From the IMG/VR virus record IMGVR_UViG_3300025711_000239, positions 54,645 to 118,644 of that record: a stretch of 64,000 nucleotides of DNA; one strand, 5' to 3'. The DNA comes from a virus (Duplodnaviria; Caudoviricetes). The notes below the pieces were generated by a model. It saw only the letters and a program-made list of their open reading frames with translations, made no database searches and was not told the origin of the DNA. This document shows positions 35,215-53,160 of this stretch, in pieces (the stretch's first letter is position 1; each line of letters begins with the position of its first letter). Position numbers and translations under genes: made by a program.

Positions 35215-35622
35215 TCACATGAGCGGGGCATTCTCTATCCTTCCCCTTCTGCACATATCCATCAGTTCCCTTGCCATTGCGCACACCGACTGCTGCTCCA
35301 TTTCCTTTTTCTGAAGAACCTGCTTCGTGGCGCTTTCCACACACAGCGAACCGTAATTGAGATCCTTTCTTCCGCGTACCTTGAAGATATAGCCGTTCAT
35401 GGCCTCCAGCCGATACTGGCGGGGATACGCGTCGGGATGTACCCGGCATTGTGCGAACGGCGAACGTACAAAGGAGCGCAGGATATTGGAGATAATGCCG
35501 GTGTTCACCGCTAAGTGCGGGTATTCAGTTTCCACCAGCTTAGTGACTTCGGCCACTGTCATGTAGTCCCGTCTGCGTATCAACAGATCGGCTACCTCTA
35601 TACTGCTCACCTTTTGGTCCAT
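35215..35622 (-). CDS. lpa: Late promoter activator Lpa
   Basis: S.E.AD..IR....EYPHL.V..PR..MAR.L pattern as recalled for P1 Lpa; upstream of pacA on the same strand. Confidence 0.7.
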   Translation of the reverse strand: MDQKVSSIEVADLLIRRRDYMTVAEVTKLVETEYPHLAVNTGIISNILRSFVRSPFAQCRVHPDAYPRQYRLEAMNGYIFKVRGRKDLNYGSLCVESATKQVLQKKEMEQQSVCAMARELMDMCRRGRIENAPLM

Positions 35623-36040: not shown

Positions 36041-36631
36041 TTACACCACCTTCCAGTCGCTTGCGAGAATATCGGTAGAAGCAGGCGACCAGTCAGAGAC
36101 AGTCAGCTGTTCTGCGTCAACGAGCAGAAGCTGAGGCATCTGCGTGACAGTAGCCTCCGGATTGCAGTCAAAGTAACGTGCCGGTACGCCGTACATGTCT
36201 GTTCCCATCAGCGCGGCGCGCATCATGCCTCTGTTGAGTCGGAGATAAACTCCCTTCCCCCATGTTTCCCGTGCCACCTTACAGCCTTCAGATAGCCATA
36301 GTTGTGCCACGGCTAGCGGTGCATGCTCCTGCCTGAAATTCAGTTCGCCCTTCTCAATCATCGCTTCATTTTGCAGGATCAGACCGTTCAACTTAATCAG
36401 CGCGACACAGGCGGCGTGGTTCAGGGTTTCGCCATAACCGGTCATTGTCAGGCCGTTTTTACTGATAACGGCGGCATATCCGGTGTTTTTGGTCTCGGAC
36501 GTCTCTGTAATGGTGTATCCAAGACGGGCAATAACCGCCAGAAGTGCCATATAATCGCCTGCGTAGTCAGCTTCGGCATCTGCGAACATAGCGATCGTGG
36601 CATTTAATTGTTGAGCGGTCATCATTATCAA
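36041..36631 (-). CDS. ABA-sandwich-like domain fused to DUF2829/Tad2-like domain
   Basis: C-terminal LSEGCKVARETW...WSPASTDILASDWKVV. Confidence 0.75.
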   Translation of the reverse strand: MIMMTAQQLNATIAMFADAEADYAGDYMALLAVIARLGYTITETSETKNTGYAAVISKNGLTMTGYGETLNHAACVALIKLNGLILQNEAMIEKGELNFRQEHAPLAVAQLWLSEGCKVARETWGKGVYLRLNRGMMRAALMGTDMYGVPARYFDCNPEATVTQMPQLLLVDAEQLTVSDWSPASTDILASDWKVV

Positions 36632-36960
36632 TAGCCTCGTTTCTGTTTGCGCTTCTGCGCTGTATGTCTGCGTTTCTTCTCTGCGTCGCAGTGCTGCTGT
36701 GCTTCTGCAATGCTTGTGGCCAAACGACGTATTCCCTGTTCGATCTCTTCCTGCGCCGGTGGCCGGGTATCGCCCACCAGCAATGTTCTTACCTGCGGTA
36801 CGGGAATGGTTGGCGGACGGCGGGCTACCCAGCTGAGACTCCCCATTAATGCGCCCATCAGTGCGATCTTTTTCATGCGTTTTCTCTTCCTGCAGGCGTG
36901 CAGAATCCCCGGCAGGTGCCGGTGATTAAATTTCACCTGGTTAAGTCCGGCGTGGGACAC
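36628..36960 (-). CDS. Hypothetical basic protein
   Basis: Coupled to the downstream gene; start probably at MKKIAL. Confidence 0.4.
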   Translation of the reverse strand: MSHAGLNQVKFNHRHLPGILHACRKRKRMKKIALMGALMGSLSWVARRPPTIPVPQVRTLLVGDTRPPAQEEIEQGIRRLATSIAEAQQHCDAEKKRRHTAQKRKQKRGY

Positions 36961-37021
36961 GCACGGCGATAATTTGAAGCCAGCGCCAGCGCCGGCGCGT
37001 GGCCAGTTGGCTGTAATGAGA

Positions 37022-37122
37022 TTGTGCTGCCCGGATTCGAACCGGCTACCGTCCGTCTGTCCCCATCAGGCCTTACGGCTATTCAATGGAACGGCGGCTG
37101 CTCCCCTTAAGCGACAGCACAA
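37022..37122 (-). ncRNA. tRNA-like RNA with expanded central arm
   Basis: Acceptor TGTGCTG/CAGCACA, D-like arm GCTT-AAGGG-GAGC, T arm CCGG-TTCGAAT-CCGG; about 50 nt replace the anticodon arm. Confidence 0.5.
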
Positions 37123-37344
37123 CGGTAAAAGCACGTTGCAGGCGCTCTTACCTGTTGTCCTATATCAGCCCGCCACCAGCTGCGCGACAAGCCATTTATG
37201 ACCAGCAAACAGTCCGGCATTCAGCAGGCCGTGAAACATGGCAAACTGCATAGCTCTGATGGTCTTTGTGTAGGTGCTGTCACTCATGCGTATCACGTCC
37301 GGATTGGCTGGCTGTCTTACCCTGATCATGCCAGAAGTAGCGTC

Positions 37345-37734
37345 TCAATATTCTGGTAAATAAAATCCGCGAATACGGGTTGCTAACAGTTTATTGCAAA
37401 GGGATATTGCCCCTCTCTGCGCCAGCATCAGCTGTGACTCTACAGGCGATAATTCCTCAAAAAGAGGTGAGTCCTGCATCATTTTAATCATCTGATCTTC
37501 CATGTCTGACAGTATTTTCAACTCCATAATGGCGCGCTGCTGATACGGGTCAAGATGTGAAACATCTTCCATCACGACATAGCTTTCAGCCAGTTCTTGC
37601 TCACTTACTAGGGCAATGCAGGATCCGTGTTCATCCCATAGTGCGTATTTGCACAATCCACTATTCTTTTCTATACGCTCAATGGTTAACGGCTGCGGTC
37701 TGGCTAAAGCGACACGATTTTTACCCTTGTCCAT
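37345..37734 (-). CDS. Protein with crAss001_48-like helical C-terminal domain
   Basis: LDPYQQR...EL....F.ELS..E..LM.AQ..A.....L.TRI..F pattern. Confidence 0.6.
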   Translation of the reverse strand: MDKGKNRVALARPQPLTIERIEKNSGLCKYALWDEHGSCIALVSEQELAESYVVMEDVSHLDPYQQRAIMELKILSDMEDQMIKMMQDSPLFEELSPVESQLMLAQRGAISLCNKLLATRIRGFYLPEY

Positions 37735-37972
37735 ATATACCTCTCATAAATGTTTATGGTGGCCGGTGCCATACCCGGCAAGTAACCCCTCAAGTGACTG
37801 GTCAACCTGGTTACTGGCGGCTTTAACCCCTGTGTACGCGACTGAAGAAGCGGGGGCCAGTCTTGCGATCGCAGCAGCAACTGCGAATGCACCACAACGG
37901 ATAGAGCACTGACCATTCCTAGTCCAATGGCGCTTTGCGCAAAGCATCAATGCTCTTTCCTGTTGGTGTGCC

Positions 37973-38327: not shown

Positions 38328-38492
38328 TTATTTCTTTGCTGCCTTAAAGGCGAACTTTAAAAAAGGCATGGCGACATAAATAGCAAGGCCGATTAATGCT
38401 AAATCAGCGCCCACTGATAAGATCCTACTGGTGAAGTCCACCAGTATGGCCAGCAGAAGCAGCAGCGCGGCAAAGAAAAGGCGGAATTTCAT
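38328..38492 (-). CDS. 54-aa two-TM protein (DUF3927/TciB-like)
   Basis: Manual translation MKFRLFFAALLLLLAILVDFTSRILSVGAD...; TAATG overlap with the TerB gene. Confidence 0.7.
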   Translation of the reverse strand: MKFRLFFAALLLLLAILVDFTSRILSVGADLALIGLAIYVAMPFLKFAFKAAKK

Positions 38493-38926
38493 TACACGTA
38501 ATCGTCGTAACGCAGGCCCAGCACACGGCCAACTTCTTCGATAACTTTCTTTTCTTCCGGCGCGATATCACCATCAGCTTCAGCCAGAGTGATCATGTTC
38601 ACGAACACTTCAACCGCCTCTTTCTGGTCGTTTTTAATGTCCTGGATTTCTTCTAAGATTTTGTTCTTGCCTACGCGGAAACCGGCTTCAAGCTGCTCTT
38701 TAAAGCGGGTAATGCTCTGCGTAATTTCAGGACCAAAATGCGACAGGTTGGCATTCGAACGAAGCAGCTTATCCAGCTTGTCCAGCTCCGACTGATCGAT
38801 AGACCCATCAGCTGCAGCCACAAGCAGGCAACCGCCAACGATCGCTTCCATCAGGTCGCGGTTTTCAATCTTCTTCAGTTCCTGACGTGCTGCTGCTGCT
38901 TTCTTGCCAAAAATTTTGCCAAACAT
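38492..38926 (-). CDS. TerB-family protein (P1 TciA-like)
   Basis: VAAADG.ID..E and AEADGDI..EE motifs. Confidence 0.88.
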   Translation of the reverse strand: MFGKIFGKKAAAARQELKKIENRDLMEAIVGGCLLVAAADGSIDQSELDKLDKLLRSNANLSHFGPEITQSITRFKEQLEAGFRVGKNKILEEIQDIKNDQKEAVEVFVNMITLAEADGDIAPEEKKVIEEVGRVLGLRYDDYV

Positions 38927-39634: not shown

Positions 39635-39707
39635 TGGTGCATGGGGCCGGATTTGAACCGGCGGCGGACTTAACGACTTCTGCGTTCGGCCTCTTCGCTA
39701 CCCATGC
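39635..39707 (-). tRNA. Degenerate tRNA-like gene (GTT triplet in an unpaired anticodon region) with encoded CCA
   Basis: GCATGGG...CCCATGC-A-CCA acceptor, D arm, GCCGG-TTCAAAT-CCGGC T arm; the anticodon stem does not pair. Confidence 0.6.
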
Positions 39708-40144: not shown

Positions 40145-41434
40145 TTAGCGGCGCTTTACTTTCGGGTTCTTGATGTTCTCAATGTCGCCGTTCACCTTCG
40201 CCCACTTGATGCACCAGCTGTTCACGGCAGCGCGGATCTCCATCACTGATGCCTCGCTCAGCCCCTTCACCTTCGCCAGTTCTGTAGGCAGTTCACCACC
40301 AGCATCGGCAACCGTCTCATATCCCGCCTTAATCAGTGCGTTAAGGGCGCGTGTCGGTATGGCCAACTCGGAGACCGGCGCGGCTTTGCCATCCAGAATG
40401 CGCTGGTGGAGACGCGGGTAATCGAGCGCTATACGTTTCATGATGCGTGCGTGCAACTCGTCGTTAACAGCGGTATCCCACATCGGCTCAAGGTCCGGCA
40501 GCAGGCGGAATACCGGATTGCCCCATACTCCAGGCACAACGTCCATTGCCAGCATCATCGCGGTGCGGATCTGGAAATGGAAATCAGCCGTTTCAATAGA
40601 GACGTCGCGGATACCGTGGAAGACACTCAGACCAAAGTGGAAGTTGTAGATGTAGCAGCCCACGTCACCGGAGCCGTCCGGCAGCTGAAGCAGGAACTGC
40701 TGCACGTCTTCCCGGCCATCGTGGAAATCGACGCGCTCTTTCAGATTGTTATAAAGCGCAGTTGTCTTAAGCAGGTCATTAGCCGTTTCAGCGCGCAGGC
40801 GGCGCTCATCGCCGACAACCTTATCCGCGATGTTCAGTTTGCTCTGTAAGTCCTGACGCTTAACGCTCTCCTTTTTGCGGTCAGCGCGCATCTGCGAAAT
40901 GGTTTTATCCCGCTCGTTCAGATCAGTTGCCAGGCGTTCAGGGTGTTTACGGCGGTATTGCGTGTGCTCCAGATTGAGCGTTGCCAGCGCCAGCTGCGCG
41001 GTCGTCAGGGCGGACTCCATCCCTTGTAGCTTCGTTTCCGCTTTGATTGCGCGGTTTTCTGCTTCCAGCACGCTTTCTTTTGCCGCGTCTCTTGCTTCTT
41101 CAATGGCGTTCTGTGCATCGAGACGGATTTTCGTTACTTCGTTGTGCAATGCGGACTGCGCGCCCAGCTGCTGCTGCGCCTGCTCCAGCGCCTCTAACAT
41201 CAGATTGTAGGTATCAGCTTCATGGTTGAGGCGCATGCCGATATCGATCTGGATCTGCTCCAGTGCGTTTGTACAGTTATCAAGGAGGCGTAGCTCCAGG
41301 TCATCGAGCGTCAGGCGTTTTCTGACGGAATTAAGCTGGCCGTAAGCGGTGACAAAGGCCTGATGAAGAACATCGTCATCAACGTTACATTCAGGGAGAT
41401 TTTGCAGCTGCTGGAGTGGAGCAAGAGTAGTCAT
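40145..41434 (-). CDS. PmgS-like coiled-coil protein with C-terminal RNAP alpha-CTD-like HhH domain
   Basis: 429 aa; N.EAD..N.L and DF..Q motifs recalled from P1 PmgS; C-terminal EL.IPTRALNALIKAG..TV.D..L.KVKGL. Confidence 0.7.
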   Translation of the reverse strand: MTTLAPLQQLQNLPECNVDDDVLHQAFVTAYGQLNSVRKRLTLDDLELRLLDNCTNALEQIQIDIGMRLNHEADTYNLMLEALEQAQQQLGAQSALHNEVTKIRLDAQNAIEEARDAAKESVLEAENRAIKAETKLQGMESALTTAQLALATLNLEHTQYRRKHPERLATDLNERDKTISQMRADRKKESVKRQDLQSKLNIADKVVGDERRLRAETANDLLKTTALYNNLKERVDFHDGREDVQQFLLQLPDGSGDVGCYIYNFHFGLSVFHGIRDVSIETADFHFQIRTAMMLAMDVVPGVWGNPVFRLLPDLEPMWDTAVNDELHARIMKRIALDYPRLHQRILDGKAAPVSELAIPTRALNALIKAGYETVADAGGELPTELAKVKGLSEASVMEIRAAVNSWCIKWAKVNGDIENIKNPKVKRR

Positions 41435-41576: not shown

Positions 41577-41873
41577 TTACAGCAGTTTCAGCGCCGTTAT
41601 GAATAAGGCAGCAGCAGTAACGATCATCAATACATTCAGCAATACAGAGGGTACTTTGATATCGCCTGACTCATACTCAGCCTGCGTCATCCGCCCTAGG
41701 TAGCTATGCGAGACCAGCACTGCGTTTTCGTCAAAGCTCAGCGTAGCCCGAACTGTCTCCAGCGCCTGACGGGATATCTGACGTGTGGCCAGCTGGACTA
41801 TTCCGGATCGCATCTTGCCGTTGTCACCCATGTAGCAGACCGTATGATAGTGAAATGGCTTGTTCTGGCCCAT
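41577..41873 (-). CDS. Small protein with C-terminal TM segment
   Basis: SYLG.MT..E motif; coupled. Confidence 0.55.
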   Translation of the reverse strand: MGQNKPFHYHTVCYMGDNGKMRSGIVQLATRQISRQALETVRATLSFDENAVLVSHSYLGRMTQAEYESGDIKVPSVLLNVLMIVTAAALFITALKLL

Positions 41874-42391
41874 TAGGCGACTTCCACCCAGTCAGTTACG
41901 CGCATATCGTTAATGCTCAGGTCGTGCATTTCCACGCCGCCGTCCGGTCGGGTCAGAATCAGCACGTCACAGCCTTCATGCTCCTGCTCAAGCGACACAA
42001 AATAACCCGCCCCCCACGCTTCCCGACGCATCAGCAATTCCGGATCTTCTTTCATTCTCAGTAAGGCCTGGTCGTAGCTGCACGTAATGGCACCGATTCC
42101 AATTTTGCTCAAACCTTCGATCTGTGCCGTTGTCATGCGTCCGCGTCCTTCTGTTAATGATTTTCTCAAGATGTAGCTAATCCCCTTCACGCCGCCGAAA
42201 TAGTTCAGCTGGCGGTTGCTCATGCCGCTGCGCGTCATAAGCTCCTGCTTCGGTACTTTGAAAATGCCGACGTCCATAGCAATGTCGGCAAAAACCGAAA
42301 GCCCCCGTCCCAAGCTGTCTCGCGTCTTATTACGGCGCGCATACTGCTCAAACGTGGGGCATCCGGTAAAAAATTGCGCATCAAAAAGCAC
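41873..42391 (-). CDS. TetR-like HTH fused to DUF2829/Tad2-like domain
   Basis: GIFKVPKQELMTRSGMSNRQLNYFGG followed by YDQAL.RMK....MRREAW...DM..TDWVEV. Confidence 0.6.
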   Translation of the reverse strand: MLFDAQFFTGCPTFEQYARRNKTRDSLGRGLSVFADIAMDVGIFKVPKQELMTRSGMSNRQLNYFGGVKGISYILRKSLTEGRGRMTTAQIEGLSKIGIGAITCSYDQALLRMKEDPELLMRREAWGAGYFVSLEQEHEGCDVLILTRPDGGVEMHDLSINDMRVTDWVEVA

Positions 42392-52902: not shown

Positions 52903-53160
52903 TCAGTGAAGCAGCGAAATAACCTGCCAGTCAGCTGACAAAATATCTTCAGGCGTTGGATCATATATTGATAACTCGCCGGACTCGCCCATGAATATAA
53001 ATTGCATCTGACTATCTGAATCGGCCTGCGTGAATACGTGAATAGGTGTATCGCCCCATTTTGCACGGCGACAGATAGTACTGTCAGTCAGGCTTATGGC
53101 AAGCATGGCATTGGCGAACCTAAGCACCGCCTGGGATGGCGTATAAGAGATATCAGGCAT
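52903..53160 (-). CDS. Stand-alone DUF2829/Tad2-like protein
   Basis: FANAM....RRAKW...YDPTPEDILSADWQVI; SD GAGGAG. Confidence 0.7.
   Translation of the reverse strand: MPDISYTPSQAVLRFANAMLAISLTDSTICRRAKWGDTPIHVFTQADSDSQMQFIFMGESGELSIYDPTPEDILSADWQVISLLH

Follow-up and report, generated by a model that had tools for sequence, protein, structure and literature searches.

Do two neighboring genes of a phage-plasmid encode proteins that capture the signal molecules of bacterial immune systems? The question is raised by positions 36041-37734 of a 64,000-nucleotide stretch (the window), which comprises bases 54645-118644 of the 118,644-base IMG/VR virus record IMGVR_UViG_3300025711_000239, classed as a provirus. 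A first-pass annotation, made from the letters of the DNA, had described the locus as a cluster of candidate immune-signal sponges, made up of an ABA-like/Tad2 fusion (here gene A) and a two-domain protein resembling crAss001_48 (gene B). The window is part of a P1/D6-like phage-plasmid of Pantoea agglomerans. With a probability of about 0.62, its islet encodes two members of immune-signal sponge families, of which gene B would sequester 3' cyclic ADP-ribose (3'cADPR) and gene A an ADP-ribose-derived signal of Toll/interleukin-1 receptor (TIR) proteins. The two genes are new members of known sponge families, seven of which are counted in a 2026 review (Tad2 and Sequestin among them), and they follow a published counter-defense strategy; they do not constitute a new kind of system. 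Both reading frames are present, on the minus strand, with the start of gene A moved by two codons. The features on which the argument turns are as follows.

37345-37734, minus strand: gene B, 129 amino acids (aa), a short N-terminal beta domain and a divergent C-terminal Sequestin (PF21825) domain (open reading frame, phrog_774 match, AlphaFold2 model)
37360-37569, minus strand: Sequestin-like helical hairpin of gene B, residues 56-125 (hhalign, conserved residues, AlphaFold2 model, superpositions, predicted homodimer)
36041-36625, minus strand: gene A, 194 aa, an N-terminal domain and a C-terminal Tad2/DUF2829 domain (open reading frame; start from orthologs and deposited annotation)
36044-36298, minus strand: Tad2-like domain of gene A, residues 110-194 (PF11195 match, PDB sequence matches, pocket comparison)
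36331-36625, minus strand: N-terminal domain of gene A, residues 1-98, weakly ABA-sandwich-like

The family to which gene B was compared, PF21825, is named Sequestin in Pfam 38.1 (formerly crAss001_48 related protein); the literature searched under the name crAss001_48 yielded nothing. According to the Sequestin preprint (10.1101/2025.07.12.664507), the family was chosen because it is the one most often fused to the sponges Tad2 (60 cases) and Acb4 (91 cases), 10 of the 13 members tested inhibit type I Thoeris, and SequestinA binds and releases 3'cADPR. The model given there is an antiparallel homodimer with interface pockets of R8, E12, Q47 and R61, and the variants E12A, Q47A and R61A are inactive. 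The first-pass statement that fusion partners yield new sponge families is borne out by this very family, found through its fusion to Tad2 and Acb4. The reading of gene B as a new sponge candidate does not stand in its novelty, as the family has already been shown experimentally to be a sponge; the kinship it proposed does stand.

That kinship is carried by an alignment of profiles: the gene B orthologs alone (three sequences) match 37 PF21825 proteins over residues 56-125 with a probability of 96.8% (hhalign, E 2.9e-10). A profile search in which 37 of 39 hits carried PF21825 was circular, as the query profile contained a bona fide member (P0031), and is not used as evidence. All four pocket residues of SequestinA (R8, E12, Q47 and R61) have equivalents in gene B (R67, E71, Q106 and R120) at identical spacing (+4, +39, +53), and the joint alignment of 41 sequences shows no variation at E71, Q106, L117 and R120 and almost none at R67. 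Gene B also matches phrog_774 over its full length (E 1.4e-42). Exhaustive phmmer searching of 1.84 billion representative sequences gave three hits at E ≤ 0.001, including gene B's own cluster; the true relative among them (P0031, E 3.4e-4) matches PF21825 at 65 bits. Another hit (P0030), a tandem-repeat protein, was set aside as spurious. In nucleotide collections, gene B had no tblastn match among 50,697 phage records even at E ≤ 1, a match in 1 of the 72,556 plasmid records of PLSDB and three close loci in IMG/VR.

The helical part (LDPYQQR...Q...RI) behind a short beta part ending in EQELAESY, which had been noticed in the sequence, is also apparent in the AlphaFold2 model. The model has a mean predicted local distance difference test score (pLDDT) of 74.8, with helices at residues 63-88 and 97-125 scoring about 90. 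Many phage proteins of 60-75 aa in BFVD superpose on the hairpin with a root-mean-square deviation (rmsd) of 0.6-1.4 Å and template modeling scores, relative to the target, of 0.85-0.94; among those superposed is a 63-aa crAss001 protein (0.94, rmsd 0.8 Å). Two copies of residues 56-129 are predicted to pair, with interaction prediction scores from aligned errors (ipSAE) of 0.54, 0.52 and 0.51 compared to 0.00 for the best control, at least 96% of contacts shared between runs and a partner pLDDT of at least 81. Among proteins of solved structure, 20 of 30 one-chain pairs attain the same mark, as does 1 of 23 single-chain proteins, a benchmark that is only roughly valid for the custom alignment employed here. 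The predicted contacts (74-74, 75-75, 109-109, 71-78, 67-81 and 120-106) describe an antiparallel two-fold dimer whose interface includes R67, E71, Q106 and R120, with R120 facing Q106 of the partner chain, an arrangement that the published model shares. Gene B is thus most likely an antiparallel homodimer of the helical hairpin, as judged from structure prediction. Neither sequence nor fold searches found a Sequestin structure in the PDB, and the prediction is therefore unlikely to be the memory of a solved complex. Of the structural comparison that the first-pass annotation had put forward, an oligomer was predicted for gene B, and the Foldseek search of the hairpin against the PDB returned generic hairpins only.

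Characterized Sequestins (SequestinA, SequestinB and T4 Y16O) share with gene B a helical hairpin of about 65 aa that starts with P-Y-Q-Q-R, the R/E/Q/R pocket residues in the same spacing, an antiparallel homodimer (modeled in both cases) whose interface includes them, and their place in phages beside a Tad2 gene. They differ from it in that gene B is only about 25% identical, has a one-residue insertion in the loop region, and carries an extra N-terminal beta domain of 55 aa, whereas most family members stand alone at 60-80 aa.

Comparison of related plasmids places gene B in an exchangeable slot. The flanking DNA is near-identical in four elements up to approximately position 37756 and from approximately 37331, and the interior is missing or replaced. 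Since the loci were retrieved through their resemblance to one or the other of genes A and B, the contents listed here are not unbiased frequencies.

37331-37756 (approximate limits), no strand assigned: exchangeable cassette with gene B (DNA alignment with three related plasmids; annotation of NZ_CP141613, which lacks the gene)
Window, NZ_CP134741 and two IMG/VR contigs: gene B (the latter three found by similarity to gene B)
pPA-MXU-90, 96.8% identical overall: slot empty
P. conspicua element: slot empty
'Ca. P. borealis' element: slot empty, as judged by spacing only
Pantoea sp. GD03673 (L012:2888-3283, plus strand): two-domain protein of 131 aa, PF21825 at 63.9 bits
Enterobacter sp. BRE11 (L013:2896-3312, plus strand): unrelated phrog_5902 protein of 138 aa, function unknown, no Pfam match

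The protein in the slot of GD03673 and gene B share 23% identity across a 115-residue alignment that covers both domains, which makes the two very diverged despite their near-identical flanks. The phrog_5902 protein of BRE11 is a possible further counter-defense candidate. Gene A and an 82-aa reading frame beside it are, unlike gene B, present in every related locus examined. These comparisons show a cassette-like gain and loss of gene B. Because a profile-profile match, the retained residues, the fold and a positional allele in a related plasmid agree, the kinship to Sequestin is confirmed: by homology, gene B is a divergent Sequestin.

Several observations nevertheless weigh against a working sponge. 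Gene B scores below the curated cut-off of PF21825 (14 bits, E 0.048, and 15 bits in six-frame translation, with the cut-off at 24.8), and of the eight columns without variation among the 37 PF21825 proteins it deviates in three, with A68, M85 and I110 in place of V, F and M, so that these columns count only as nearly invariant once gene B joins the alignment. The BFVD superpositions carry weak Foldseek E-values (0.01-0.3), as is expected for a hairpin, and fold searches of the PDB yielded nothing more specific than helical hairpins of a generic kind (Z ≤ 8.7, Foldseek E ≥ 0.13). The general readiness of hairpins to pair may also explain part of the predicted dimer. By the account in 10.1101/2025.07.12.664507, 3 of the 13 tested family members left Thoeris uninhibited.

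Gene B could accordingly be read as a diverged hairpin whose sponge function has been lost or changed, in which the N-terminal beta domain perhaps acts and the hairpin only dimerizes. In line with this are the sub-threshold score, the inactive family members, the single true relative (P0031) outside its own cluster among 1.84 billion representatives, and its dispensability, since it is absent from a plasmid that is 96.8% identical; the N-terminal domain is, in addition, common to the positional allele of GD03673 and hence under some constraint. Yet gene B keeps all three residues whose mutation abolishes Sequestin activity, at the predicted interface, and gain and loss are typical of counter-defense genes. 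We regard the loss or change of function as distinctly unlikely. If gene B acts as the characterized Sequestins do, its C-terminal hairpins would pair as an antiparallel homodimer with two interface pockets, each formed by R67, E71 and R120 from one chain and Q106 from the other, which would sequester 3'cADPR (1''-3' glycocyclic ADP-ribose, gcADPR). Capture of this molecule would block the ThsA effector of type I Thoeris, as was shown for Sequestin proteins. We infer both the binding of ligands and an anti-defense activity, here and for gene A, by analogy with the characterized families.

For gene A, the list of open reading frames had given a TTG start at 36631. All 24 full-length orthologs and the deposited coding sequence begin two codons later (MMTAQQ), and gene A was therefore set to 36041-36625. 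Its relatives fall into 26 clusters, of which 24 are full-length with PF11195. Residues 110-194 match this Tad2-like family at 44.3 bits (E 2.6e-11, cut-off 25), which upholds the DUF2829 motif noted at the C-terminus; the score in a six-frame search of the record is 45.6 bits, and all 25 members of the gene A family match as well. Tad2 has been described in two preprints (10.1101/2023.05.01.538930 and 10.1101/2023.11.15.567273). The best PDB sequence matches of gene A are all Tad2 proteins, namely ModTad2 (8v3e and 9eib, E 0.003-0.009), SPO1 Gp34.65 (8sme) and SptTad2 (8wjd), followed by weaker matches to AcrIIA7 (9kzr, E 0.24) and HgmTad2 (8kbi). Two of the orthologs are named 'Thoeris anti-defense Tad2 family protein' by NCBI.

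The resemblance to the solved Tad2/DUF2829 proteins (SPO1 Gp34.65, 8SME-8SMG; ModTad2, 8V3E/9EIB; HgmTad2/AcrIIA7, 8KBI; SptTad2, 8WJD) covers the C-terminal 85 aa, including the signature W...W-x-P-x-x-T-D-x-L-A-x-D-W. The solved proteins measure 88-104 aa (AcrIIA7 158 aa), whereas gene A, at 194 aa, has about 100 aa of extra N-terminal domain, a W-G in place of W-N-G, and an insertion longer than that of SPO1 Tad2. The two-domain form pre-exists in phrog_7362, a phage family of unknown function that matches gene A at residues 32-195. The only match to gene A in a phage record is orf6 of Escherichia phage D6 (YP_009914683.1, 191 aa), likewise a two-domain protein located between tciB and lpa, with 25% identity over residues 28-192 and a residue other than Asn directly after the Trp. 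It is very diverged, with Val at the T78 equivalent, and its neighbor differs from gene B: the 130-aa orf5 has no Sequestin match in Pfam at E ≤ 1. Tad2 has already been reported in phage-plasmids of this kind: according to 10.1101/2025.09.12.675607, DefenseFinder 'Tad2 AcrIIA7' hits occur in 93% of D6-type and 56% of P1-type elements. The homologs tabulated in the supplements to the cited preprints may already include genes A and B.

The deposited annotation offers a different identity. On the near-identical plasmid, the RefSeq product name of gene A is 'MW1434 family type I toxin-antitoxin system toxin'. Type I toxins are typically small hydrophobic peptides, which a soluble two-domain protein of 194 aa does not resemble; no NCBIfam model (release 20.0) matches gene A, and NCBI now places two of its orthologs in the Tad2 family. 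Similarly, an anti-CRISPR of the AcrIIA7 type might be suspected, as a DUF2829 protein was, by published accounts, first reported under that name and the AcrIIA7 chain 9kzr is among the weak PDB matches, but the anti-Cas9 activity of HgmTad2/AcrIIA7 is described as not reproducible. We consider either identity highly improbable, and gene A is, by family, a Tad2-type sponge.

The pocket of gene A was read from an alignment to SPO1 Tad2 (taken from the SPO1 record), with the contact residues as given in 10.1101/2023.05.01.538930. Four of them, W25, W73, T78 and D79, are retained in gene A as W122, W179, T184 and D185, and W122, W179 and D185 are invariant across the 25 orthologs. I63 is replaced conservatively by V169, and T65 is changed to A171. 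Gene A would most likely assemble through its C-terminal Tad2 domain, and a pocket of W122, W179, T184 and D185 would sequester an ADP-ribose-derived TIR signal.

Other features of the alignment and the model argue against a canonical pocket. SPO1 N26 has no equivalent in gene A, where W122-G123-K124-G125 shows a one-residue gap compared to SPO1 Tad2, ModTad2 and SptTad2; the same W-G instead of W-N-G is found in all 25 orthologs, in D6 orf6 and in the two Tad2-like paralogs of the element described below. In HgmTad2, N22 (the equivalent of SPO1 N26) and G23 are described as holding the diphosphate, and gene A therefore departs from the canonical pocket. Where SPO1 Tad2 coordinates water through D67, H71 and S76, gene A has Q173, S177 and A182. 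Moreover, the AlphaFold2 model of gene A (from 25 orthologs, 55-98% identity) has a mean pLDDT of 44, with 25-41 in the Tad2 part, and does not confirm the Tad2 fold (a helix with an antiparallel sheet) or the homotetramer, which in this family is made up of two V-shaped dimers.

The ligands of the Tad2 family have diverged, comprising gcADPR (type I Thoeris), histidine-ADP-ribose (His-ADPR; type II, bound by ModTad2 and a Tatumella homolog) and cyclic dinucleotides, while a review reports the binding of cyclic UMP and cyclic CMP by a Tad2 homolog. Because of this divergence and the loss of the Asn beside the first Trp, we assign no ligand to gene A. It could be a Tad2 fold that targets, instead of the type I signal gcADPR, His-ADPR of type II Thoeris as ModTad2 does, cyclic dinucleotides in the pocket of the insertion domain as HgmTad2 and SptTad2 do, or cyclic mononucleotides. 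The absent phosphate-contacting Asn points this way, as do the ranking of ModTad2 as the best PDB sequence match, the reported cyclic mononucleotide binder, and the length of the insertion that follows strand 2 and precedes the next core strand, which at approximately 32-34 aa is near the 35-41 aa of the homologs that bind cyclic dinucleotides through it (24 aa in SPO1 Tad2). However, the canonical gcADPR-pocket residues W122, W179, T184 and D185 are kept; ModTad2 itself has W-N-G, so the absent Asn is no specific pointer to it; the PDB matches are weak (E 0.003-0.3); and residues of an insertion pocket are not alignable in the absence of a reliable model of gene A. A target other than gcADPR thus appears possible but unlikely.

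The host background agrees with the proposed role of the two genes but says little about it. Of 75 Pantoea species genomes, 5 encode a ThsB-type TIR protein (PF08937), and all four genomes in which the element resides lack a match to this family. The two counts fit a sparse and strain-variable presence of Thoeris; the second one speaks against the proposed role.

Both proteins carry an additional front domain. Residues 1-98 of gene A had been taken as ABA-like, a part of the fusion claim that fared less well than its Tad2 half. They have no Pfam match even at E ≤ 10 and no PDB sequence match, and a word-based search returned only their own protein family (25 hits among 37 candidates). The phage ABA sandwich family PF18066 in particular matched neither these residues at E ≤ 10 nor any of the 25 orthologs, and was not found in a six-frame search of the record at E ≤ 1. 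Its absence at E ≤ 1e-5 from 301 Enterobacterales genomes is uninformative, as the controls gave no match there either, and the literature searched for PF18066 or the phage ABA sandwich domain contained nothing relevant on function. AlphaFold2 predicts a helix-helix-strand-strand-strand-helix topology with a pLDDT of 50-71 (56-71 for residues 1-60). With this low-confidence model, the best of 48,161 PDB chains in a fold search was 1r7l_B, a phage protein from Bacillus cereus (Z 4.5, rmsd 3.1 Å, 78 aligned residues, 18% identity), from an entry that we take to be the founding structure of PF18066. The nearest Atlas clusters (Phage_ABA_S) scored 0.87, below the lead level of 0.9, with PF18066 on 24-30% of their members. 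These two weak, independent leads make an ABA-like fold possible, although the Pfam model does not match.

The front domain of gene B (about 55 aa) is predicted to contain strands at 17-22, 28-33 and 39-44 and a helix at 45-50, with a pLDDT of 57-73. It has no family match, its sole Pfam hit being a non-significant one to Tudor_RapA (E 0.052). Sponge domains joined to other domains, and Tad2 and Sequestin together in one element, are known from published fusions (10.1101/2025.07.12.664507), namely Tad2-Acb4 in Pasteurella phage Pm86, Tad2-PF21825 in a Comamonas element and PF21825-Acb4 in Pseudomonas phage YH6. In the present element, by contrast, Tad2 and Sequestin are encoded by two genes with 719 bp between them, and neither gene's fusion partner has a match to a sponge family known so far. 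Phage D6 orf6 shares the front domain of gene A, and the Sequestin allele that fills the slot in another Pantoea plasmid shares that of gene B. Any role of these domains is an inference. They might themselves be counter-defense modules (about 100 aa in gene A, about 55 aa in gene B) that, together with the W-G variants of Tad2, neutralize several TIR-derived signals at once, an idea to which we give little credence. If it were true, the front domains would be new ligand-binding or oligomerizing units that widen the range of captured signals, including ones beyond the known sponges.

The first-pass annotation had also counted three Tad2-like genes in the element. Searched in six-frame translation, the complete record of 118,644 bases has exactly three such places, gene A and the following two paralogs.

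41873-42391, minus strand: Tad2-like paralog, 172 aa, about 100 extra N-terminal aa (PF11195 26.0 bits, 27.9 in six-frame search)
52903-53160, minus strand: Tad2-like paralog, 85 aa, stand-alone, between portal and head-processing genes (PF11195 29.3 bits, 28.8 in six-frame search)

Both are marginal, at only 1-4 bits above the PF11195 cut-off of 25, and neither has a match in PHROG. By that curated cut-off they are Tad2-like, with clearly altered pockets. In the paralog at 41873-42391, W126 is followed by Gly, and H156, N161 and D162 stand in for W73, T78 and D79 of SPO1; in the paralog at 52903-53160, W35 is followed by Gly and the equivalents are Y66, E71 and D72. It is a reasonable guess that the paralogs bind different signals, and a loss of sponge function is equally possible. 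The paralog at 41873-42391 is packed between a 98-aa reading frame and a 225-aa gene that is annotated as VRR-NUC in the near-identical plasmid (41577-43069, minus strand), and the overlapping or abutting start and stop codons of this group suggest one operon.

The identity of the element follows from its relatives. A 4-kb stretch around genes A and B is 100% identical to the Pantoea agglomerans plasmid pFC61912-B_D (NZ_CP134741; 94,249 bp, circular, non-mobilizable), and 82-97% identical to parts of five more plasmids of approximately 87-96 kb, of which four belong to Pantoea and the fifth bears the label Acinetobacter. The annotation of NZ_CP134741 includes terminase, portal, a head-processing protein, a 2,289-aa SNF2/DarB-like protein, Lpa, TciA/TciB, ParM and UmuDC-like genes. 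This gene set, together with a gene order as in phage D6, is the reason for reading the window as a P1/D6-type phage-plasmid. The IMG/VR record exceeds the near-identical circular plasmid by about 24 kb (related plasmids measure 90-95 kb) and may include a terminal overlap or flanking DNA.

In phage D6 the order is tciA, tciB, orf6, orf5, lpa, pacA, pacB, which the window matches as tciA-tciB-...-Tad2-like-...-lpa-pacA. As orf6 lies at the same place within this shared order, genes A and B occupy a conserved position of the phage-plasmid lineage, from tciAB to lpa, with every gene on the minus strand. The two sponge-family proteins are encoded in this small accessory islet, whose remaining features are listed below.

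38328-38926, minus strand: tciA/tciB-like genes, upstream border of the islet (TerB Pfam match; phrog_632 and phrog_1470; order as in phage D6)
37165-37287, minus strand: 40-aa reading frame (annotated in the near-identical plasmid; tblastn match in all related loci)
37022-37121, minus strand: tRNA-like remnant between genes A and B (Rfam tRNA 25.5 bits, E 0.052; gathering score 29)
36628-36876, minus strand: 82-aa reading frame directly upstream of gene A (sequence; its stop lies 2 nt before the ATG of gene A)
35215-35622, minus strand: lpa, late promoter activator, downstream border of the islet (PF25716, E 3.2e-30; order as in phage D6)

The 82-aa reading frame accompanies gene A in every related locus examined; it has no family match, and shows a signal-peptide-like start and a Lys/Arg-rich tail. 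The tRNA-like element is 100 nt long with the T-arm GGTTCGAATCC, and ARAGORN makes no call on it. An intact tRNA-Phe (GAA) lies at 39635-39707 (minus strand), upstream of tciA in a gene-poor stretch. A scan of the islet for promoters and terminators gave counts not above those of shuffled sequence, and PADLOC and NCBIfam searches produced no meaningful match. Further upstream, a 429-aa protein (40145-41434, minus strand) contains an RNA polymerase alpha C-terminal domain (PF03118, E 5e-7), which is unusual for a phage-plasmid and might act on host transcription.

The finding leaves the understanding of sponge action unchanged. What is mildly interesting about the locus are the two front domains, the W-G variant of the Tad2 pocket, a Sequestin missed by Pfam and the slot in which it is swapped. 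The Tad2 variant that lacks the phosphate-contacting Asn and the Sequestin variant that escapes the Pfam model offer two targets for work on ligand specificity, and the front domains are candidates for fusion-guided discovery, the approach by which Sequestin was found. The slot is precisely delimited: from one near-identical plasmid to the next, the Sequestin allele in it is exchanged, missing or supplanted, which makes it a practical site for finding further counter-defense genes. With three Tad2-like genes and one Sequestin-like gene, a temperate plasmid-prophage of a plant-associated enterobacterium joins the elements that stack sponge genes.

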